Shown one piece after another: positions 55,024-64,000 of a stretch of 64,000 nt of DNA (the stretch's first letter is position 1; the number at the start of each line of letters is the position of its first letter). This stretch comes from a virus. The stretch is from positions 4,235 to 68,234 of the IMG/VR virus record IMGVR_UViG_3300037507_002457. The stretch is one strand, 5' to 3'. A program made the translations under genes and the position numbers. Under the pieces are notes generated by a model that saw only the letters and a list, made by a program, of their open reading frames with translations, was not told where the DNA came from and searched no databases.

Positions 55024-56601
55024 TTATGTTTTATAGTTTAAAATCCAATCAAGAACTTTCTTGAGTGTTTCTGCTCTGTTTGCTCCATCGATTGATTGTA
55101 TCGGCTTCTTTTTGGATATTTTCAGATTGTATATATCCGCCTTATTGTCGCTTACCATACCAACTTTGATTTTGGTATAATCAATCGTAGAGCCCTTGTC
55201 TTTCTTTGCTTTGGCGATTTTTGGTGGCAGAAAATATACCTTTTCATATCTTTCTGCGTTTTCTATTGTATCAACAACCTGTTGTGGATTGGTGAACTTG
55301 AATCTTGGTCCAGATGAAAGTATCTTGATCGTGTTCATCACCGAGTTGATGTTTGGATCTATTGCCATAACTGTGCTGGCAGCATCTCTGGCATATTCCA
55401 TAACATCTTCAAACTTAGCGAACTTGGCAGCAGGTTCATCATATCTTTCACGTATATTTACCCAAGCAAGTGCCTGTAGTTGATATGATGTAAGACCAAT
55501 CTTTTGTGCTTCTTCGTGTAGTATCTTTACCAGGTTCTGACGTATATAATCATCGCCAAACAGCTTCATTACTATTTTGTTTACGATGGCATTTTTCTTT
55601 TTTTCCAATGATTTCTTTTTCTTGGCAAGCATTTCTTCTTCCGGCGAAAGCTTTGGCTTTTTTGGTTTCTTTGGCTTTGCTTCATCGACCTTTTCTTCTT
55701 CATCTTCATCGTCTGGGATATGAGCAATCCAATCTGTGATGTCATTTTCAACCATGTTCTTCAATGGTTCATCAAAGAATACACGTATCATCCAGCGGTC
55801 AATGGTCGCAGGGTCAATCTTGCCTGCCCATTTTTTGCCAGGAAATATAAGATTGATAAGAAATGAATTGATTTTTGTTCCGCTAATGGTAAATGTGCCC
55901 GATTCAAGGTCGTTGTATAGTTCTTCTTTTGATACATTTCCATTATGCTGTAGATAATACTTTACATATGTATTGAAGTTTGGAATCTTGGCGTTTGACA
56001 CGGTAACTTCACTAAAGATGTCATCTTGACCTTTCTTTGGCCCCTTTTCAATCTTCTTGCCAGTATAGTCTTTCTTTGGAAGAAGTAGATTGGCATATGC
56101 ACTGTTTGGATATTTTGCCAGAAATGCCAGATCCTTGTCTTTTAGGTTACTCTTTACATTGGCGGCAATATCTGAAAGTGCCTGCTTACCTTCTTCACTA
56201 CCAAAATCTTTTTTTACTGCGGTGTATAGTTTAGCGGCCTCAAGAATGTTTTGGTCAAGTGCGGTGTTGGCAGAACAATAGCCGCACGCCGCCAAGAACA
56301 AACAACCATCACTTTCTCCCATACTTTCAAACACAAGCTTATTGAAGTTATCATACCAGTAGGCATATGTATCAAGCTTGGTTTTCATTTCACCAGGAGC
56401 CTGCAAGTATTGGTCAACTTCACGCTTTAGATTATTCATGGTAATCTTTATAGGAATACTTACTTCTACTTTCTTATTATCAACAATAAAGTCTATCTTT
56501 ACTGGGAATGTATCCTGTGTTCTGAACGAAGGACTTACAAGCTGGTCATAAAATCCTTTGCCGCTAAGTGCTTCTTGTAATAGAGAAAGTAGTGAAATCA
56601 T
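55024..56601 (-). CDS. Hypothetical protein, possible HhH-type DNA-modifying/glycosylase-like fold
   Basis: WYD..SANT..N, TKINSFLINL, ATIDRWMIR, LQALAW. MISLLSLLQE leader, with TATTTAT upstream on the minus strand. Confidence 0.6.
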   Translation of the reverse strand: MISLLSLLQEALSGKGFYDQLVSPSFRTQDTFPVKIDFIVDNKKVEVSIPIKITMNNLKREVDQYLQAPGEMKTKLDTYAYWYDNFNKLVFESMGESDGCLFLAACGYCSANTALDQNILEAAKLYTAVKKDFGSEEGKQALSDIAANVKSNLKDKDLAFLAKYPNSAYANLLLPKKDYTGKKIEKGPKKGQDDIFSEVTVSNAKIPNFNTYVKYYLQHNGNVSKEELYNDLESGTFTISGTKINSFLINLIFPGKKWAGKIDPATIDRWMIRVFFDEPLKNMVENDITDWIAHIPDDEDEEEKVDEAKPKKPKKPKLSPEEEMLAKKKKSLEKKKNAIVNKIVMKLFGDDYIRQNLVKILHEEAQKIGLTSYQLQALAWVNIRERYDEPAAKFAKFEDVMEYARDAASTVMAIDPNINSVMNTIKILSSGPRFKFTNPQQVVDTIENAERYEKVYFLPPKIAKAKKDKGSTIDYTKIKVGMVSDNKADIYNLKISKKKPIQSIDGANRAETLKKVLDWILNYKT

Positions 56602-56682
56602 ATATGCTTGATTATAATAAATATATATCAAGGGCTAAAAACATATTGACAAAAGGTTATTATAGTGTATGGTAATAGCATT

Positions 56683-57705
56683 ATGGACCGAAAACTGGCA
56701 TCTATTCAACTTATCAAGGAACTGAACCCTATAAATGGTGCAGATGCCATTCTTTGTGCCAAAGTTCTTGGCTGGGAATGTGTTGTAAAAAAGAATGAGT
56801 TTCAGCCCAATGACAAGTGTGTATATTTTGAGATTGATAGTGTACTTCCTATCGCAAGTTGGAATGATCATCTTCGTAAGGAAGTAGATAAGAAACTGCG
56901 TGTAAAAACTATTCGTCTTCGTGGCCAACTTTCGCAAGGATTGGCATTGCCGCTTTCTATTCTGCCCCAAGGTGAATATGAAGTTGGTCAGGATGTTACA
57001 TCACTTGTTGGTGTTGAAAAATACGAACCTGTTGTGCCTGCTCATTTGAGCGGAATGGTCAAAGGGAACTTTCCATCTTTCTTACATAAGACAGATGAAG
57101 TTCGTCTGCAATCTGAGCCAAATGTGCTTGTTGAAGCAAGCAATAAAGGATTGGTGCTTATTGGCACACTAAAGATGGACGGCACAAGTTTTACAGCATA
57201 TCGGCGTGATGATGAGTTTGGTGTATGCTCTCGTAATCTCAACCTAAAAGAAACAGAAGACAATGCTCATTGGAAGATGGCTCGCAAGCTCAAACTTGAA
57301 GAGATTCTTCGTGGCGAAGATCGTAATCTATGTATTCAAGGTGAAATGGTTGGACCGGGTATTCAAGCAAATCGTCTTGGGCTCAAAGAGATTGAATTAT
57401 ATCTTTTCAATCTATACGACATTGATAGTGGCAAATACCTGAACAGAGAAGATTTGATTAGTTTTGGCAAGAAACATAACATCAAGATTGTAGATACTGT
57501 GCATATTATTCAACTTGGTAATGACATTGTGCCCAAGAGTGTTGATTATTTTTTGAGCATTGCCAATGAACTGAACTATAACAACGGTACTCCCGCTGAA
57601 GGTATTGTTTGGCGTCCAGCAGTTGAGACACACAGCGATGTGCTAAAAGGCCGCTTGAGTTTCAAGACAATATCAAACCGCTTCTTGGAGAAATACAAAG
57701 AATGA
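56683..57705 (+). CDS. RNA ligase (Rnl2-type, DRB0094-like)
   Basis: RKLASIQ, CVYFEIDS, LRGQLSQGL, motif I KMDGTS, VCSRN, QGEMVGPGIQ, EGIV, SFKTISN. Confidence 0.9.
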   Translation: MDRKLASIQLIKELNPINGADAILCAKVLGWECVVKKNEFQPNDKCVYFEIDSVLPIASWNDHLRKEVDKKLRVKTIRLRGQLSQGLALPLSILPQGEYEVGQDVTSLVGVEKYEPVVPAHLSGMVKGNFPSFLHKTDEVRLQSEPNVLVEASNKGLVLIGTLKMDGTSFTAYRRDDEFGVCSRNLNLKETEDNAHWKMARKLKLEEILRGEDRNLCIQGEMVGPGIQANRLGLKEIELYLFNLYDIDSGKYLNREDLISFGKKHNIKIVDTVHIIQLGNDIVPKSVDYFLSIANELNYNNGTPAEGIVWRPAVETHSDVLKGRLSFKTISNRFLEKYKE

Positions 57706-57914
57706 AAAACGCATACGCAGAACATCATTTCGCTGAAAATGAACGACTTGTTCATATTCCTACGGGAAAAATGGCAACATATACGGGCACAAAACAAGTA
57801 AAAGACACACAGTTTGATTTTATCAAGTTTGATGACGGCCAAACTTTCTTTTATTATCCGTATGAGATAACTGAAAGGTTTAGGCGGTTATACAATAATG
57901 AAAAAAGTACTTGA
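57702..57914 (+). CDS. Hypothetical protein
   Basis: ATGA overlap with the ligase stop. Confidence 0.6.
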   Translation: MKNAYAEHHFAENERLVHIPTGKMATYTGTKQVKDTQFDFIKFDDGQTFFYYPYEITERFRRLYNNEKST

Positions 57915-57958
57915 CTTTTACTTTATATAACTGTATATATTATTAGTAAACTACACAT

Positions 57959-58553
57959 ATGAAAAATACACTAATGTCCGTGGTTCTGTTATTGTCTGCT
58001 ACACAAACGTTTGCCCAGTCTGATTTATTTGGGCGAAATGCTGATACCGGTGCGATTGTTGGAGGAATTGTTGGTGCCGTAGTTGGTCATCATAATGGGA
58101 ATGCGTGGAAGGGCGCAGCAATTGGCGCTGGTGTGGGATTAGTGGCTGGAGCTATTGCGGACAACCATACATATCATACTTCTGGAAACCATCAACCAGT
58201 TTATCAGGAAACATATTCTTCATATGACGATTATTATGATCGTGATTTTTATCCTTCGTATGGACAGGTAGTTGTGCGCCAGCCTCCTTCCCGCATTATC
58301 GTGATGAGTCCTCCCCCGCCCCCCTCCCCGAGTCATTGTAATTCACCGCCCAACTCCGGTTTATACATATCCTAATCACAGATATACAGAGATTCGCAGT
58401 TCTCCTCCCTGCGTTGTACAAAACAACTACCATCGTCCTCCCAGTCATAACTTCAACAATCGTCCACCGGCAAATAACTATCGTCCTCCCGTGAACAATC
58501 ACCCCCGTGATAATCGCCGCGACGACCGCCGAGATCACGACCGTAGACGCTAA
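57959..58553 (+). pseudogene. Secreted glycine-zipper protein, frameshifted in a poly-C tract
   Basis: Signal peptide (MKNTLMSVVLLLSATQTFA) and GAIVGGIVGAVVG..GAAIGAGVGLVAG zipper. The natural Pro/Arg/His-rich tail continues in the +1 frame to TAA at 58553. Confidence 0.7.
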
Positions 58554-58606
58554 AAATAGTTATTGACTTTTGAGTATTTCCATACCATATTACTATTTAT
58601 TAACAA

Positions 58607-58678
58607 ATGAATAGCCGACCAAACAGTTCAAACTACCAGATCGCCCAATGGGGTGACTATGGTGTTGGTGTGGCTTAA
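58607..58678 (+). CDS. Putative 23-aa leader peptide
   Basis: MNSRPNSSNYQIAQWGDYGVGVA, lying between a promoter-like region and a terminator. Confidence 0.5.
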   Translation: MNSRPNSSNYQIAQWGDYGVGVA

Positions 58679-58706
58679 AAGGAGAAAATAACTTTCAACT
58701 TAAACA

Positions 58707-58738
58707 GCCCCACCAGTAAAAAGGTGGGGTTTTTATTT
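58707..58738 (+). terminator. Terminator / attenuator hairpin
   Basis: CCCCACC-AGTAAAAA-GGTGGGG-TTTTTATTT. Confidence 0.85.
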
Positions 58739-58759
58739 GGAGAAAAATGAAAATAGTGT

Positions 58760-58806
58760 TTGACAAAGTATAAAAAGTGTGTAGAGTGTTAGTCGTTCTT
58801 TAGAAA
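58760..58806 (+). promoter_or_regulatory. Sigma70-like promoter with a boxA-like element
   Basis: TTGACA-16 nt-TAGAGT, then CGTTCTTTAGAAA. Confidence 0.6.
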
Positions 58807-58814
58807 AATCAATT

Positions 58815-59102
58815 TTGTTAGGGATAGAGGTAAAAGCGCACCTTTAAGCGTTAAAATAGCCACCGGACTCATAATAGAGAGGACCGTTTTGTGGGAAGCA
58901 AATCAACAAGTTTAGGATAGGATAGTGACAGAGATAACTTGTTGTGAGCACGAAGTGAATATATTGTTCTTATAAATGAAAGAATATATCAATAAGATGG
59001 GTAATCAACCCCGTTGAGATATATTCTTTTAGTGTTCCGAGTTTTTACAAACCTCCACGCGGTTCGGAATGGGAAATACGTAGTATTACGTATTTGCTAA
59101 TT
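58815..59102 (+). ncRNA. Candidate structured ncRNA A
   Basis: ORF-free, with helices CAACAAGTT/AACTTGTTG, AAAGAATATATC/GATATATTCTTT, TTCCGA/TCGGAA, AAATACGTA/TACGTATTT. Confidence 0.5.
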
Positions 59103-59160
59103 GTAAATAATTTTATATAGTTTTTTGACATATATATTATATCTATAGATATACAAATAT

Positions 59161-59481
59161 ATGGCAGATGATAAAGACCTGATAAGAGAGTTTTTGACTG
59201 GCGGATGGCTTGTAGCACTGGTAGGTGCGGCAGGAATGGTCGCAAGATTACTTACAGACGACAGTAAAATGCCGTGGGTAGAACAACTCAAAAAGATATT
59301 TGCTGCATCTATATGCTCTATAATAGCGTGGTTTATGTTGGAACAAACTGACATATCCAGCCTAACCAAAGCAATAATATATGGTGTTGTTGGTGTAATA
59401 TCACCTGAGTTATTACAAGGATTGGCAAGATTAGCAAAGCAAGTATCCAAAAACCCAGCAAAGTTTATCAATAAAAAATGA
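59161..59481 (+). CDS. Holin-like membrane protein
   Basis: 106 aa with three hydrophobic segments and a basic C-terminus. Confidence 0.6.
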   Translation: MADDKDLIREFLTGGWLVALVGAAGMVARLLTDDSKMPWVEQLKKIFAASICSIIAWFMLEQTDISSLTKAIIYGVVGVISPELLQGLARLAKQVSKNPAKFINKK

Positions 59482-60140
59482 AATCAAAACACGCCATTAT
59501 TGTAATGCTTTTTATTGTGTCCATTTTTGTATCAAAGGGGCTATACACAAGTTCAATGCTGCGTTCAAAGATTGATCATTCGTATAAAGAATTTGAGGTT
59601 GTAACAAATACACTTAGTCCGTTGTTTGACTCATATGGTCTTACGCTTGTAGATAGTCAAGTCAAAGTATCGCACGATCTTATAACACTAGATCAGTTTA
59701 GAAACACGCTAACAAAAACGCTACAACAGCAACAAACTTTACTTACGTCATACAAGAAAAATGTAGAAGGAAAAGAAACAATAGACGACAAAGAGTTGTT
59801 TATACGCACACAGCGAGTAACAGAATATATCAAAAAGATACAAGTATTGAGTGTGCGTGGAGATGTAAAAGAAATACACGCTCAACTGTATAATGGAGAG
59901 TTATATCGTCTAATAGATCCCGTAACGGAAATCATAAACAAGATACTGGATAACAAGTTTGATGCTGCGGAAAATTCAAGAAAAATTGCGTTGGATGAAT
60001 TAGTAGCATATGAAAAAGTAGTATATTTCACTGCGGCCTTGACAATTATACTGGGTGTGGCATTATTTAGGTGTAAGGGGGACTGTGTGGCAAAGAAAAA
60101 GCCGCGTAGATCAACCAAACGTATAAAAAACAGATACTAA
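59478..60140 (+). CDS. Two-TM membrane protein with a periplasmic helical bundle
   Basis: N- and C-terminal TM segments flank a helical region. ATGA-type overlap with the holin-like gene. Confidence 0.65.
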   Translation: MKSKHAIIVMLFIVSIFVSKGLYTSSMLRSKIDHSYKEFEVVTNTLSPLFDSYGLTLVDSQVKVSHDLITLDQFRNTLTKTLQQQQTLLTSYKKNVEGKETIDDKELFIRTQRVTEYIKKIQVLSVRGDVKEIHAQLYNGELYRLIDPVTEIINKILDNKFDAAENSRKIALDELVAYEKVVYFTAALTIILGVALFRCKGDCVAKKKPRRSTKRIKNRY

Positions 60141-60147
60141 AATTTTT

Positions 60148-60223
60148 GCGGTAGTAGCTCAGTTGGTAGAGCGCAATCCTTCCAAGCTTGATGTCGCAGG
60201 TTCGAGCCCTGTCTACCGCACCA
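60148..60223 (+). tRNA. tRNA-Gly(TCC)
   Basis: GCGGTAG/CTACCGC acceptor, loop CTTCCAA, GGTTCGAG, encoded CCA. Confidence 0.9.
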
Positions 60224-60230
60224 AATTTAT

Positions 60231-60308
60231 GTATGTGTGTGCCCGAAATAGATAGGGCGGTCTCTGCAAAAGACATTTATGCTGGTGCAATTCCAGTCAC
60301 ATACTCCA
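60231..60308 (+). tRNA. tRNA-Cys(GCA)
   Basis: GTATGTG/CACATAC acceptor, U73, loop CTGCAAA, CCA. Confidence 0.8.
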
Positions 60309-60310
60309 AT

Positions 60311-60445
60311 ATGAAAAATAAAATCAAATTGCCAACGCTAGAAGGTAGATTAAAAAACAAGATAAGAACCAGAAAAGAAGCAGTCAAACAACTTCAAGAT
60401 GCTGGAATGGAATTGACCCCATTGGCCAAAAAGTATCTTAAATAA
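60311..60445 (+). CDS. Small basic hypothetical protein (44 aa)
   Basis: MKNKIKLPTLEGRLK.., lying between tRNAs. Confidence 0.5.
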   Translation: MKNKIKLPTLEGRLKNKIRTRKEAVKQLQDAGMELTPLAKKYLK

Positions 60446-60452
60446 AATTTAC

Positions 60453-60534
60453 AGAGAGTAAAGGGTACAGCCATTGGAATATCGCAATGGGTTCATGTAG
60501 CGTAATAAGCACTCTTGACCAAACACTCTCTACA
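60453..60534 (+). ncRNA. Candidate small structured RNA B
   Basis: AGAGAGT/ACTCTCT closing stem, AAGGGT/ACTCTT, CCATTG/CAATGG. tRNA-sized but not a cloverleaf. Confidence 0.45.
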
Positions 60535-60540
60535 ATTTAT

Positions 60541-60616
60541 TGTCCCATAGCTCAGTTGGCAGAGCAAGAAATTGTTAATTTCAAGGTCGCACGTTCGAAC
60601 CGTGCTGGGACAGCCA
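60541..60616 (+). tRNA. tRNA-Asn(GTT)
   Basis: TGTCCCA/TGGGACA, loop TTGTTAA, GTTCGAAC, G73-CCA. Confidence 0.9.
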
Positions 60617-60623
60617 TTTTTAT

Positions 60624-60701
60624 GGGGATTGTGATGTAATTAGATTAGCATAACAGATTGTGAATCTGTGTGAGACGGAGCATAACCGTCCATTCCCACC
60701 A
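60624..60701 (+). tRNA. tRNA-His(GTG)
   Basis: ACAGA-TTGTGAA-TCTGT, possible encoded G-1, atypical T loop, CCA. Confidence 0.8.
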
Positions 60702-60707
60702 TTTTAT

Positions 60708-60782
60708 GGATCATAAGCATAAGAAGTGATGCTCTAGGCTCTTAACCTTGAGAACACGGGGCAGTACCGTGATGATCCACCA
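60708..60782 (+). tRNA. tRNA-Lys(CTT)
   Basis: GGATCAT/ATGATCC, loop CTCTTAA, CCA. Confidence 0.85.
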
Positions 60783-60788
60783 TTTAAT

Positions 60789-60862
60789 ACGGACGTGGTA
60801 TATTAGTAGTGCCTCGGTCTCCAAAACCGATGACGAGAGTGCGATTCTCTCCGTCCGTGCCA
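60789..60862 (+). tRNA. tRNA-Trp(CCA)
   Basis: ACGGACG/CGTCCGT, TCGGT-CTCCAAA-ACCGA, G73-CCA. Confidence 0.85.
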
Positions 60863-60870
60863 TATTTATT

Positions 60871-61100
60871 TTACCAGTAAGACGCAGAGTCTTAGCGGTC
60901 GTAGCATACACATCAGCAATCTTGTGGGTCGTTTCTGCAAGACCGAGTGACAGGTACGACGCCCGATAAGCCGGACATTATTCGCTAAACGTGAGCCAAG
61001 GCAAAAGAAGCGGGTAATGTTCCAAGAACAGAGTGCACGATATGTTCGGGCCATAACGGAGAAAAATAGTGTATGGTGGGTGAGAGCCCCACACTGGTAA
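60871..61100 (+). ncRNA. Candidate ~230-nt ncRNA C with tRNA-like ends
   Basis: TTACCAGT/ACTGGTAA closing stem preceded by a T-arm-like hairpin GTGGG-TGAGAG-CCCAC, plus several internal helices. Confidence 0.65.
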
Positions 61101-61108
61101 TTCATTTA

Positions 61109-61186
61109 TGGGGTGGGAGCTTATGAAGCACAAGCGATAGATTGTCAATCTATAGATAGTCGGTGCAAATCCGATGCACCCCGCCA
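61109..61186 (+). tRNA. tRNA-Asp(GTC)
   Basis: GGGGTG/CACCCC, ATAGA-TTGTCAA-TCTAT, G73-CCA. Confidence 0.85.
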
Positions 61187-61196
61187 AAATTTTAAT

Positions 61197-61283
61197 GGTG
61201 TCGTCGCATAGTGGCAATTGCAGGAGACTGTAAATTTCCCGACCTAACGGTCTACATTGGTTCGAGTCCAATCGGCACCACCA
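61197..61283 (+). tRNA. tRNA-Tyr(GTA)
   Basis: Loop CTGTAAA, long variable arm, GGTTCGAGTCC, CCA. Confidence 0.9.
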
Positions 61284-61366
61284 ACTTCATATGAAGAAGC
61301 CACCAGCCTGATCCGCTGTCCTACCAACCGTGGCGATCTCCTATGGTAGTGAAGGGACCAATTTAT

Positions 61367-61441
61367 GGGAGTATAGTGTAATGTATAACACGCAACGCTA
61401 CGGACGTTGTAATCTAGGTTAAATTCCTAGTACTCCTACCA
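61367..61441 (+). tRNA. tRNA-Arg(ACG)
   Basis: GGGAGTA/TACTCCT, CAACG-CTACGGA-CGTTG, CCA. Confidence 0.88.
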
Positions 61442-61445
61442 ATTT

Positions 61446-61521
61446 GGCCCCATAGAATAATGGTTGAGTTCGCCGCTCTTTCAAAGCGGAGAGGTGGGAT
61501 CGTGACCCACTGGGGCTACCA
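61446..61521 (+). tRNA. tRNA-Glu(TTC)
   Basis: GGCCCCA/TGGGGCT, CCGCT-CTTTCAA-AGCGG, CCA. Confidence 0.88.
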
Positions 61522-61530
61522 GTTTATTAT

Positions 61531-61604
61531 TGTTCCTTGGTGTAATGGTAGCACAAGCGACTTTGACTCGCTTTGTCATGGTTCGAATCCATGAGGAACA
61601 GCCA
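61531..61604 (+). tRNA. tRNA-Gln(TTG)
   Basis: TGTTCCT/AGGAACA, AGCGA-CTTTGAC-TCGCT, GGTTCGAATCC, CCA. Confidence 0.92.
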
Positions 61605-61618
61605 CTATATATATTCAT

Positions 61619-61801
61619 ATGATAATAATACGCAGAGCAGTAGATAAACATAGAGCATACACGGTTATATTCCTAAAAGGTGAACCGCCTAAATGGATAC
61701 CAACCAGTGATTATGAGCATCAACGTATACTTGAAATATACAAGCAAGATAAGCGATATGAAGGTATACTCAATGATTTTACTGATCTTGATCTAAACTA
61801 G
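61619..61801 (+). CDS. Small hypothetical protein
   Basis: 60 aa ORF after tRNA-Gln. Confidence 0.55.
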   Translation: MIIIRRAVDKHRAYTVIFLKGEPPKWIPTSDYEHQRILEIYKQDKRYEGILNDFTDLDLN

Positions 61802-62551
61802 TCCAACGAATCTCAATAGTGATTCGTAAAATGAATTTGGTATAGGATGATTTTTATATACATTCAATGTCGCATTCGACCAGTGTATTGCCAATAAATC
61901 CTTCGGAAATTCGAAAGGTCCAAAAAATGGGCCAGTTTTTTTACATCCAAGGTCCAAATAATGTTTTTGATGCAAAAAACATTCTCGACATTTCTTTGTG
62001 GTTATATTTGTTCTGTTTACCAGTATGTCCATACACAAATTCATAGAACAATCCCAATGTAGATATGGCATTGTTAAATAATTTATTTTCATGGATAATT
62101 CTTTGTATGCTTCAATCGCAAATGAAGAACCTTTTGGACATTTCATCAAGAAAGTGCTTAATGTTTTTCTTGCATCCAAAATATCAACAAATAGATATTC
62201 TGGGTTATAATTAATTGGTGCCAAATAAGCTACATCCAATTGGGAATATATTCCACCTTCCATAGCAAGAAGCTTACATTGAAACTGATCAGACCAATGA
62301 CTTAATGAACCTATACCCCCGTTTGGAATATATGGTAAATATTCTCCTTGAAATGAGAAAATTGAACTTTTGGGCATTATATCCGCCGCGTCTCGTAAGA
62401 TTGTTTTGTCTGGTACATTTTTTATTTTGTCATAACACCAAAGATGTACTTCGTGACCGTGTAGCTGCAATAATTTTATTGTGAGTTGTTCCATTAAGCT
62501 TAAACTGTCACCAACCCACACCGTGTGTACTATAACATTTTCTTTATTCAT
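61793..62551 (-). CDS. Glycosyltransferase (GT32 / DXD-like)
   Basis: HTVWVG..LSLMEQL..GHEVHLWCY, DAADI, SDQF..LL..GGIYSQLDV, IHWSN. Confidence 0.75.
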   Translation of the reverse strand: MNKENVIVHTVWVGDSLSLMEQLTIKLLQLHGHEVHLWCYDKIKNVPDKTILRDAADIMPKSSIFSFQGEYLPYIPNGGIGSLSHWSDQFQCKLLAMEGGIYSQLDVAYLAPINYNPEYLFVDILDARKTLSTFLMKCPKGSSFAIEAYKELSMKINYLTMPYLHWDCSMNLCMDILVNRTNITTKKCRECFLHQKHYLDLGCKKTGPFFGPFEFPKDLLAIHWSNATLNVYKNHPIPNSFYESLLRFVGLV

Positions 62552-62584
62552 ATTTCATATATATGAATTATAAATAGTTTTTAT

Positions 62585-62659
62585 GGTAGAGTAGCTCAAA
62601 GGAAGAGCAGTCTGTTGATAACGGACAGGTTGTGGTGTCAGGATCCACCTCTACCACCA
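62585..62659 (+). tRNA. tRNA-Ile(GAT)
   Basis: GGTAGAG/CTCTACC, loop TTGATAA, irregular T arm, CCA. Confidence 0.78.
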
Positions 62660-62660
62660 T

Positions 62661-63092
62661 TTAACTTGGGTCATATCCAAACTCGTGAATACTATTAGCG
62701 TCTGTATATAGATGCTTTGCTGGCACAACTTTGGTTATTATTTTATAATCTCCACCAAGTGTTCTTTCGCCGTGAGTAACTGCATATTGCTTATTGATAG
62801 TCACCCAATCACTCGCATTTATATCTCCTTGTATATTTGAAGGAACTGCACGATATATCTTTACTTTAGCGTCTGGTTTATCTTTGGTATTATGCATTAT
62901 GCTAATAGACAACTGGTCACTATAATCTGTTGCTCTATCGCCATAATATGCTACTGCTTTATTTGAGTATATGTCATCTGGATATATCTGCGTAAGGTCG
63001 TGTAAAGGAGAGCCGTTTGATTTACTTGGAGCTTTATGCGTTCCTTTATAATCATTTTCTAATATTTTTTTAGCTAGTAGATATAGTTTCAC
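62661..63092 (-). CDS. Hypothetical protein, possible ADP-ribosyltransferase-like fold
   Basis: VKIYRAVP..DWVT..YAVTHG..EFGY resembles an R..S/T..E ART core (inference). LLAKKILE leader and TATTTATA upstream on the minus strand. Confidence 0.6.
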   Translation of the reverse strand: MKLYLLAKKILENDYKGTHKAPSKSNGSPLHDLTQIYPDDIYSNKAVAYYGDRATDYSDQLSISIMHNTKDKPDAKVKIYRAVPSNIQGDINASDWVTINKQYAVTHGERTLGGDYKIITKVVPAKHLYTDANSIHEFGYDPS

Positions 63093-63125
63093 AATTATAA
63101 ATATATATAAAATGATAGAATGTTG

Positions 63126-63171
63126 TTGACTTTCTATTAAACTAGTACATAGTTATTCTCGTTCTTTCAAA
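63126..63171 (+). promoter_or_regulatory. Sigma70-like promoter with a boxA-like element
   Basis: TTGACT..CATAGT, then CGTTCTTTCAAA just before tRNA-Ala. Confidence 0.6.
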
Positions 63172-63175
63172 TAAT

Positions 63176-63251
63176 GGGCTCATATCTCAGTTGGTAGAGA
63201 AGCTGCTTTGCAAGCAGAAGGTCGCAGGTTCGAACCCTGTTGGGTCCACCA
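63176..63251 (+). tRNA. tRNA-Ala(TGC)
   Basis: GGGCTCA/TGGGTCC with G3:U70, loop TTTGCAA, GGTTCGAACCC, CCA. Confidence 0.92.
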
Positions 63252-63256
63252 TTTTT

Positions 63257-63570
63257 GTGGCGGAAAAAGTCTTATCAAATGGGACTAACGCATTATCTAT
63301 ACGAAGAGTATAGGTAAGTTTCTGCTCCGAGTAGTAAGTAAGGTACTATGCTGAAGCCTAGGTTGGCCAACCGAAGCTACCAGAGGTATGGTTTGTATGT
63401 AGAATAACATATGACATTGCGAACCATTATGATGCGACGGTATCATCTGACTGAATAACTGAAATATCGGAGTTGGAATGGAGGTAATCATTATTCCTCC
63501 CAATATTTTCACACATAACTAGGGCAGTCCCTTCGTGGCGTCGCATACGATACTAACGACAAGTCTTTTT
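63257..63570 (+). ncRNA. Candidate ~300-nt structured ncRNA D
   Basis: No credible ORF. Helices GGGACT/AGTCCC, CTCCGA/TCGGAG, TGGTTTGTATGT/ACATTGCGAACCA, GGAGG/CCTCC. Confidence 0.5.
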
Positions 63571-63653
63571 TATATACTTGACAAAATAGATTTTTACTTC
63601 AATATGTGCGGTGAAATGAGATGCAATAACGCAAATCATTTCATACACACACA

Positions 63654-63884
63654 ATGAATAAGTCGAATACACAAAAGACAGGTAAAAGCGGTTATGAAAT
63701 CCGTTGGGAAGTGCTTAACAAGGCACTTGAAATGGCTGATGGTCGTTATCACTTCTCTCAAGAAGCGCTGCGATACGAGGCTGAAAAAACCAACAAGGGA
63801 GCATTACCGATTGCACCAGACAATCGCGTAGAGGAAGCAATGCAAATTGCTGAAAAACTCTATCGATTTGTAGAGAGTAAGTAA
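63654..63884 (+). CDS. Hypothetical protein
   Basis: KSGYEIRWEVLNKALEM..EAMQIAEKLYRFVE, with TTGACA upstream at 63578. Confidence 0.7.
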   Translation: MNKSNTQKTGKSGYEIRWEVLNKALEMADGRYHFSQEALRYEAEKTNKGALPIAPDNRVEEAMQIAEKLYRFVESK

Positions 63885-63938
63885 TAGTTATATCGTGGTG
63901 TAATAGATATAACTAGTGTATTTGATTACACCACTTAT

Positions 63939-64000
63939 ACAGGTGTAGCGTAATCTGGTTATCGCGTTCCGTTTGGGGCGGAAAGATTGTGAGTTCAAAT
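63939..64000 (+). tRNA. tRNA-Pro(TGG), truncated by the window end
   Basis: TTCCG-TTTGGGG-CGGAA anticodon arm and GAGTTCAAAT T arm start. Confidence 0.85.

Follow-up and report, generated by a model that had tools for sequence, protein, structure and literature searches.

A conserved leader-ORF module, putatively a ribosome-dependent transcription attenuator, at the head of a phage ncRNA/tRNA region

The locus and its features

The DNA analysed in this work, hereafter the window, is a stretch of 64,000 nucleotides corresponding to the final 64 kb of a 68-kb IMG/VR virus record with an estimated completeness of 30%, and the sequencing runs containing it are lake-water metagenomes. The DNA polymerase encoded in the window is nearest to that of Microcystis phage Mel-JY01 (41% identity), followed by those of T4-like cyanophages and vibriophages (around 31%), so that the phage is a distant T4-like one. 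The module described here is preceded by an RNA ligase gene, a 70-aa ORF and a gene for a glycine-zipper secreted protein, and it is followed, in this order, by a second promoter (P2), a conserved RNA without an Rfam family, an HDV-like ribozyme candidate, a holin-like gene, a 220-aa ORF and at least 13 tRNA genes, the record stopping inside the tRNA array (Table 1). A comparison of the DNA from 57900 to 59500 with cultured phage records returned no matches. The glycine-zipper gene (57959-58553 region, + strand) stops at 58375, close to a poly-C tract at about 58310-58330; the +1 frame is open there from about 58303 to a TAA at 58551-58553, and its translation is a sensible Pro/Asn/Arg-rich repeat. 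This break reflects either an assembly error in the homopolymer or a site of frameshifting, and if the +1 frame is counted the gene would end 10 nt 5' of the first promoter (P1).

Table 1. Features of the leader module and its neighbourhood, in window coordinates
Feature	Position	Strand	Remarks
RNA ligase	56665-57705		5' of the leader module
Promoter P1	58563-58568 and 58586-58591	+	TTGACT, 17 nt, CATATT; promoter scan 9/12; A-rich stretch ahead
TATTTAT motif	58594-58600	+	6 nt ahead of the ATG; invariant in 22/22 versions
Leader ORF	ATG 58607 to TAA 58676-58678	+	23 codons, MNSRPNSSNYQIAQWGDYGVGVA; no Shine-Dalgarno (SD) sequence
Hairpin inside leader ORF	58634-58664	+	From MFE folds; the window's own version
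Strand A (antiterminator 5' strand)	58665-58675	+	TTGGTGTGGCT; last codons of the leader
Spacer hairpin	58679-58701	+	Inner GAAA/TTTC at 58684-58696; between stop codon and terminator; enclosed by the antiterminator
Strand B	58706-58716	+	AGCCCCACCAG; common to antiterminator (with A) and terminator (with C)
Intrinsic terminator	58706-58738	+	Stem 58706-58731, then T-rich tail; scan: 9 pairs, 6 G-C; arms CCCCACC 58708-58714 and GGTGGGG 58723-58729; T5 58730-58734, then ATTT
Promoter P2	58760-58787	+	TTGACA from 58760, 16 nt, TAGAGT to 58787; scan 10/12
Conserved unnamed ncRNA	58794-59033 (ends approximate)	+	Invariant core TAGCCACCGG...GACCGTTTTGTGGG; would be the first target of read-through
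HDV-like self-cleaving ribozyme candidate	59034-59108	+	Below gathering scores
tRNA-Lys (CUU)	60708-60779		Rfam, missed by ARAGORN; anticodon read by eye
tRNA-Asp (GUC)	61110-61183		Rfam, missed by ARAGORN; anticodon read by eye
tRNA-Ile (GAU)	62585-62656		Rfam, missed by ARAGORN; anticodon read by eye
tRNA-Pro (UGG)	63939-64000		Rfam, missed by ARAGORN; anticodon read by eye; cut by the record end

A preliminary description of this DNA had named a promoter-like site, a TATTTAT motif, a 23-codon ORF, a terminator and a pairing at 10 of 11 positions, and all of them lie where it placed them with one exception: the pairing segment TTGGTGTGGCT does start at 58665, but it ends at 58675 and not at 58676. 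In P1, TTGAC, CAT and the final T of the second hexamer are unchanged across the alignment of 22 distinct versions of the module, and the terminator folds with -17.1 kcal/mol (z -3.24), one of 200 shuffles folding equally well. On the + strand of the window, 15 of the 24 TATTTAT sites are located at most 40 nt 5' of an ATG ORF of at least 30 aa, and ATATTTAT occurs 16 times on this strand and five times on the other. The form (A/T)ATATTTAT(A), found 5-25 nt 5' of many gene starts (+ strand: 1510, 2321, 12186, 15529, 22115, 27621, 33845, 35432 and 53489; - strand: 56623 and 62576), is probably a promoter element of the phage itself. Its designation as a 'late' promoter was dropped, because the genes behind TATTTAT are so mixed (three homing endonucleases, a deoxyribonucleotidase and unknowns) that no timing class can be assigned to it.

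An SD-like 4-mer precedes just 3 of the 52 long ORFs of the window, which is under the 10% background, and the host of this phage evidently initiates translation without SD pairing. Since such 4-mers are that rare, their lack ahead of the leader ORF is no argument against its translation. Two RNA libraries (X19 and X20) consist of assembled contigs only, which cannot reveal RNA ends or translation; these contigs leave 58548-58709 uncovered, and a single 202-nt contig from a relative spans 58729-58928, crossing P2, and could be DNA carry-over.

With regard to the downstream RNAs, a search of the ncRNA against Rfam with E up to 1 gave no family; we take it to recall the stable RNAs inside the tRNA cluster of T4. 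The ribozyme candidate behind it scored 29.1 bits with RF02682 (gathering score 44) and 27.5 bits with drz-agam-1 (gathering score 37), in an alignment covering the ribozyme helices P1, P2, P3/L3 (ACCUCCACGCGGU) and P4 and the GCUAA. Similar sub-threshold ribozyme matches lie at the same place in the relatives L050, L052, L053 and L058, and in L051, L055 and L061 a tRNA or tRNA-like match stands behind the ncRNA instead. As ribozyme-like and tRNA-like matches alternate by lineage, it seems that a ribozyme generates the 3' end of the ncRNA in some lineages, and tRNA processing in others. Published examples of HDV-like ribozymes adjoining tRNAs in phages are the 'theta' ribozymes (PMC10879173). 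Between the ribozyme candidate and the holin-like gene, the relative L004 (6855-7689) has about 830 bases more than the window (59087-59116). A scan of the + strand from 58731 to 61917 detected no terminator-like sites. Directly past the tRNA-Ala gene, 63238-63510 (+) resembles the manA RNA motif at a score below threshold (33.9 bits, gathering score 55.2, E 6e-06).

Conservation of the module, its reading frame and its alternative helices

Relatives of the locus were collected in several ways. The RNA ligase led to 33 loci, a degenerate DNA pattern built from the ORF gave 15 matches (14 true loci and one chance match, L041, in an unrelated high-GC gene), and a pattern of the ncRNA core located 25 viral and 13 metagenome loci. 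In all 25 viral loci, P1, the small ORF, the terminator and P2 stand directly 5' of the ncRNA core, whichever gene lies further 5', and same-strand tRNA arrays follow the module in each of the seven relatives scanned, so that the earlier placement of the module at the head of an ncRNA/tRNA region is supported. An nhmmer profile of the module matched 62 of 96 sources once each and the window once, and the resulting set comprised 22 distinct sequences from 29 IMG/VR contigs plus the window's record (about 30 phage contigs). The nearest relatives (L002, L003, L004 and L028) have flanks 73-97% identical to those of the window and lack the glycine-zipper gene; their promoter and terminator are the same as in the window, and their small ORF has 38 codons. 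The similarity of the window to them breaks at 58667, within the ORF, and its leader falls 15 codons short of the 38-codon form and has no counterpart among the other 21 versions. A search for other copies of this short leader gave nine matches, all in unrelated genes, and the exact terminator string had no match among viral contigs.

P2, which starts the ncRNA/tRNA transcript independently of the proposed switch, is kept in 21 of the 22 versions, 21-29 nt past the T-run; therefore, read-through can only add to downstream transcription, as the preliminary description had cautioned, and the conservation of P2 would limit what a switch in the module can control. The one exception is L058, in which the first hexamer is deleted and whose operon would have to be transcribed by read-through or from farther upstream. 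Just 3' of the terminator of L058/L073, TTGACA has apparently gone by deletion between two AAAAAGTGTTT repeats, and a TAGAGT...AATCAATTTT segment is duplicated.

The preliminary description had named lack of conservation of the small ORF among the findings that would refute it, and the ORF proved to be conserved: its ATG and open frame (23, 37, 38 or 43 codons) are present in all 22 distinct versions, the remaining two frames contain one to five stops each, and the gap runs inside the ORF measure 3, 3 and 45 nt, all multiples of three. When the 207 substitutions of the minimum spanning tree were placed at random, the frame survived in 3 of 20,000 simulations; in a stricter simulation with positions fixed and letters random (window excluded, 185 substitutions) it stayed open in 669 of 20,000 (about 3%). 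The dN/dS ratio in the 38-codon set is about 0.35-0.5 and variable columns per codon position number 11, 15 and 19, which suggests a modest coding signal. The 23-aa peptide of the window had no matches in Pfam or PHROGs. Much of the apparent peptide conservation overlaps RNA helices inside the ORF, among them the central helix of the relatives, a covarying hairpin unlike the window's own internal hairpin at that place, with 84.7% of cells paired and two pairs with double changes (slid controls 29-45%). A structured untranslated RNA would also be compatible with these data, as the peptide conservation coincides with helices. Because the frame is always open, yet dN/dS is modest and the peptide core coincides with helices, we conclude that the selected feature is apparently the frame rather than the peptide, as would fit a leader ORF.

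Strand A can pair with strand B, the 5' arm of the terminator, at 10 of 11 positions (nine Watson-Crick pairs and one G-U, with one U x C mismatch). In the window sequence by itself this pairing is only moderately improbable: a complement of at least 10/11 to the 5' arm occurred within 103 nt upstream in 32 of 5,000 dinucleotide shuffles, the same test in natural 103-nt tiles of the window gave 6 of 1,242, and the A:B duplex energy was at least equalled in 121 of 1,000 shuffles. The pairing is more than chance because it is conserved and covaries in the relatives. The RNAalifold consensus for the 22 sequences is A:B, with or without the 3' arm of the terminator and also on whole transcripts; 92.9% of 210 cells in its ten pairs are paired (slid controls 37-56%), and four of the ten pairs changed on both sides, in 17 cells. 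None of 500 shuffles did as well in paired share, in changed cells or in covariation score, although these shuffle statistics overstate independence, since the variants form about six types from about four independent lineages and not 22. These types are GGGTGTGGCT / AGCCCCACCC, the same A strand with a ...CCTT(CC) B strand, AAGGTGTGGCA / TGCCCCACCTT, the bulged GGGGTGCGGCA / GGCCCACCC and GGGTGGTCCGG / CCGGAACCACCC, and that of the window, TTGGTGTGGCT / AGCCCCACCAG, in which T58666:A58715 replaces the G:C of the relatives and two further G-U/A-U pairs lengthen the helix. Enclosed by A:B, the spacer hairpin has C-G, U-G or U-A as its fourth pair across members of the L055 clade, as read from alignments. 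A comparison of cognate and non-cognate A/B duplex energies was set aside in favour of column-wise pair counts, as it gave no clean diagonal and L036 alone clearly preferred its own partner; the A strands, being rich in purines, also bind the pyrimidine-rich B strands in other registers.

The competing terminator is likewise conserved: each of ten representatives has a hairpin of -13.3 to -20.3 kcal/mol ahead of a run of at least five T, and across versions 84.7% of cells are paired, with little variation. The folding of both alternatives, proposed earlier as a check together with covariation of the antiterminator, gave the expected pair of structures. Nascent RNA ending before the 3' arm is predicted to form A:B with the enclosed spacer hairpin in all seven lineages tested, whereas the full-length MFE structure is the terminator in six of seven (L080 keeps A:B); when everything up to 12 nt past the stop codon was blocked, the terminator alone formed. 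In the window, antiterminator (-16.8 kcal/mol) and terminator (-17.1 kcal/mol) are iso-energetic. Strand A coincides with the last three to four codons in 21 of the 22 versions, and the distance from the stop codon to strand B, counted from the sequences, is 22-33 nt, which leaves B free; by geometry, a ribosome at the end of the ORF would be able to mask strand A in those 21. The exception is the L036 group, in which strand A ends about 24 nt ahead of the stop codon, so that a terminating ribosome would not cover it directly. A helix between the 5' part of the ORF and strand A, comparable to the 1:2 helix of trp, appears in MFE folds of the window and of the L038 group, where A pairs with codons 3-6. 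Such pairings have no common register and are no better than shuffles in seven of eight lineages (L036, 12 of 500); with no supported anti-antiterminator, untranslated RNA would read through, unlike in the classical operons.

Proposed mechanism and competing explanations

Because of these comparative data, that is, a conserved module, an open frame, a covarying A:B helix and two iso-energetic states, we hypothesize, with a probability of about 60%, that this module, placed at the head of the phage ncRNA/tRNA operon, is a transcription attenuator of the ribosome-dependent (leader-ORF) kind. According to this hypothesis, P1 would start a short transcript whose first feature is the nearly leaderless, SD-less ORF. 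If a ribosome were at the end of the ORF when the polymerase makes strands B and C, strand A would be buried, B would pair with C and the transcript would end at about 58735. With no ribosome, a late one or one stalled earlier in the ORF, A would capture B upon its emergence, and the A:B helix, enclosing the small spacer hairpin, would exclude the B:C hairpin, so that the terminator could not form. Read-through would then pass P2 and reach the ncRNA, the holin-like gene and the tRNA array, and slow translation would in this way add to the transcription driven by P2. Translation of the ORF, the direction of the response and its physiological signal are what we infer here. The preliminary description had already proposed ribosome-controlled attenuation; conserved ORF, terminator, covarying A:B and synteny agree with this proposal, and the lack of a run of regulatory codons does not.

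As to the signal, no tandem runs of regulatory codons were found in the leader of the window. Among the leaders of the relatives (n=21, 37-43 codons), ten contain all 20 kinds of amino acid, ten contain 19 and one contains 18. Composition would give all 20 kinds with a chance of about 0.2-0.3%, and among natural 38-aa windows the figure is 0.15%. Selection for such complete leaders is not supported by conditional simulations that keep unchanged residues (P 0.05-0.22 per lineage pair). The leader of the window has 13 kinds in 23 residues, close to a random expectation of 13.25, and it lacks C, E, F, H, K, L and T, though tRNA-His, -Glu and -Lys are encoded in the window. Its enrichment for amino acids matched by phage tRNAs is unconvincing (17 of 22 non-Met residues by count versus a rough proteome estimate of about 65%), the count being based on the 13 tRNAs visible in a record that ends inside the array. 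The trigger suggested in the preliminary description, tRNA depletion or attack by an anticodon nuclease, is thus a hypothesis. Tentatively, and with a good deal less confidence than in the attenuator itself, the family may be thought of as a general sensor of decoding capacity, in which the ancestral leader of 37-38 codons would sample every, or nearly every, amino acid and the leader of the window, with its 13, would have been re-tuned. Shortage or cleavage of almost any host tRNA would then stall the ribosome ahead of strand A; an anticodon-nuclease defence, for instance, would cause a stall and so open transcription into the phage tRNA/stable-RNA operon.

Three other explanations were weighed. 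It is unlikely, in our judgement, that the stretch from P1 to the terminator, about 140-190 nt long, is an independent small gene or a small RNA with a dual function, in which A:B forms after release and refolding and P2 alone drives the operon. The unit does have its own promoter and a strong terminator, with P2 behind it in nearly all versions, and the whole P1 transcript folds with -48.5 kcal/mol (z -4.93), none of 200 shuffles being as stable. The A:B helix retained in the full-length MFE structure of L080 and a peptide core, W..CF..QP..GA.EG, that is alike across clades would also suit such a unit, and released attenuator RNAs with functions in trans are known, as in the case of rnTrpL (PMC6614838). 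Nevertheless, strand B is common to A:B and B:C, and a helix that competes with the terminator and covaries more strongly than it does has the look of an expression platform; in the six other lineages the full-length MFE structure is the terminator and not A:B. Moreover, the window has lost the peptide core and yet retains the frame, A:B and the terminator, and in L058, without the first hexamer of P2, downstream expression would need read-through.

It seems quite improbable that the element is a terminator/antiterminator switch governed by the binding of a protein, a small ligand or a tRNA to a structured 5' domain, with the open frame as a by-product. Such a switch would account for the covarying helices inside the ORF, for the covariation of the spacer hairpin within the L055 clade and for the modest coding signal. 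Strand A can also pair with the 5' end of the transcript in L036, the L038 group and the window, and the resulting stem resembles the P1 helix of a riboswitch. This 5':A stem, however, is no better than shuffles in seven of eight lineages, and the 5' domain of the window is almost wholly unlike that of the relatives, a difference that one would hardly expect of a ligand pocket. A search of 58563-58740 against Rfam with E up to 1 found no families, neither T-box nor other riboswitches. The frame also argues against a by-product, being open in all 22 versions behind an invariant ATG, with indels of 3, 3 and 45 nt, and rarely kept when substitutions are placed at random (3 of 20,000).

Least probable of the three is that the element of the window is a decaying remnant, shortened by recombination and deletion, in which regulation is lost and only the terminator and P2 matter: its uniquely short leader, the similarity break inside the ORF, the lack of the relatives' central helix and peptide core, the 13 kinds of amino acid against 19-20 and the failure to find a second copy would fit decay, but the 45-nt length difference preserves the frame and the same stop codon, the window folds an internal hairpin of its own where the relatives have theirs, its A:B helix has a private compensatory pair (T58666:A58715) and is lengthened by two extra pairs, and antiterminator and terminator are still iso-energetic.

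Significance and comparison with known systems

The tRNA arrays of phages are commonly portrayed as cargo that is co-transcribed constitutively. A full-text literature search did not find leader-peptide control of phage tRNA clusters among the matches listed. If the attenuator reading is true, the phage would gauge decoding capacity and adjust transcription into its tRNA/stable-RNA operon, which is relevant to the question of why phages carry tRNAs and of how they cope with host defences that target tRNAs. The module is small, SD-independent and apparently served by a sigma-70-like promoter, so its logic is directly testable in vitro. For annotation, about 30 lake-phage contigs would share, as a conserved functional element, an ORF of 23-43 codons that gene callers may skip.

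In T-boxes, the decision between terminator and antiterminator is tied to tRNA charging, and the 5' strand of the antiterminator is G-rich (GGGUGG-like). The phage module shares the choice between the two structures and a G-rich antiterminator 5' strand, the link to tRNA charging being hypothetical in its case. Unlike T-boxes, which need no open frame, it maintains one; neither a specifier stem nor a 7-nt bulge was seen in it, and the T-box covariance model had no matches in 56000-64000 with E up to 1.

In leader-peptide attenuators, a ribosome at the end of the leader favours termination. They are known from the enterobacterial trp, his, leu, thr and pheA operons (for pheL, see PMC3082878). 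As in those attenuators, the phage module has a short leader ORF, here presumably translated, and a terminator 5' arm that can alternatively pair with an upstream strand, and the position of the ribosome would decide which hairpin forms. Unlike them, it has no run of codons for a single amino acid and no supported 1:2 helix, its ORF is SD-less and nearly leaderless, its targets would be a phage stable RNA and tRNAs rather than biosynthetic enzymes, and a promoter intervenes after the terminator.

Antibiotic-responsive, ribosome-mediated attenuators have been described for vmlR of Bacillus subtilis (PMC9226507) and for the topAI uORF of E. coli (PMC12121999). They have in common with the phage module a short uORF at which ribosome stalling switches off premature termination, as it would do in the phage. 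The topAI case reportedly acts through Rho. Such attenuators control bacterial resistance or toxin-antitoxin genes, and none of them is known to be located in a phage or ahead of tRNA genes.

In mycobacteria, antitermination into the gene behind the whiB7 uORF is believed to result from stalling in that uORF, and its activators include the depletion of amino-acid biosynthesis enzymes, tRNAs and tRNA synthetases, which makes whiB7 a broad translation-stress sensor whose uORF sequence differs among species (Poulton et al., PMC10274678). The whiB7 uORF is described there as alanine-enriched and controls a bacterial transcription factor, whereas the leaders of the phage relatives mostly contain 19-20 kinds of amino acid, that of the window contains 13, and the targets would be RNA genes. 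Broad translation-stress uORFs such as that of whiB7 would be the closest in spirit to the phage module.
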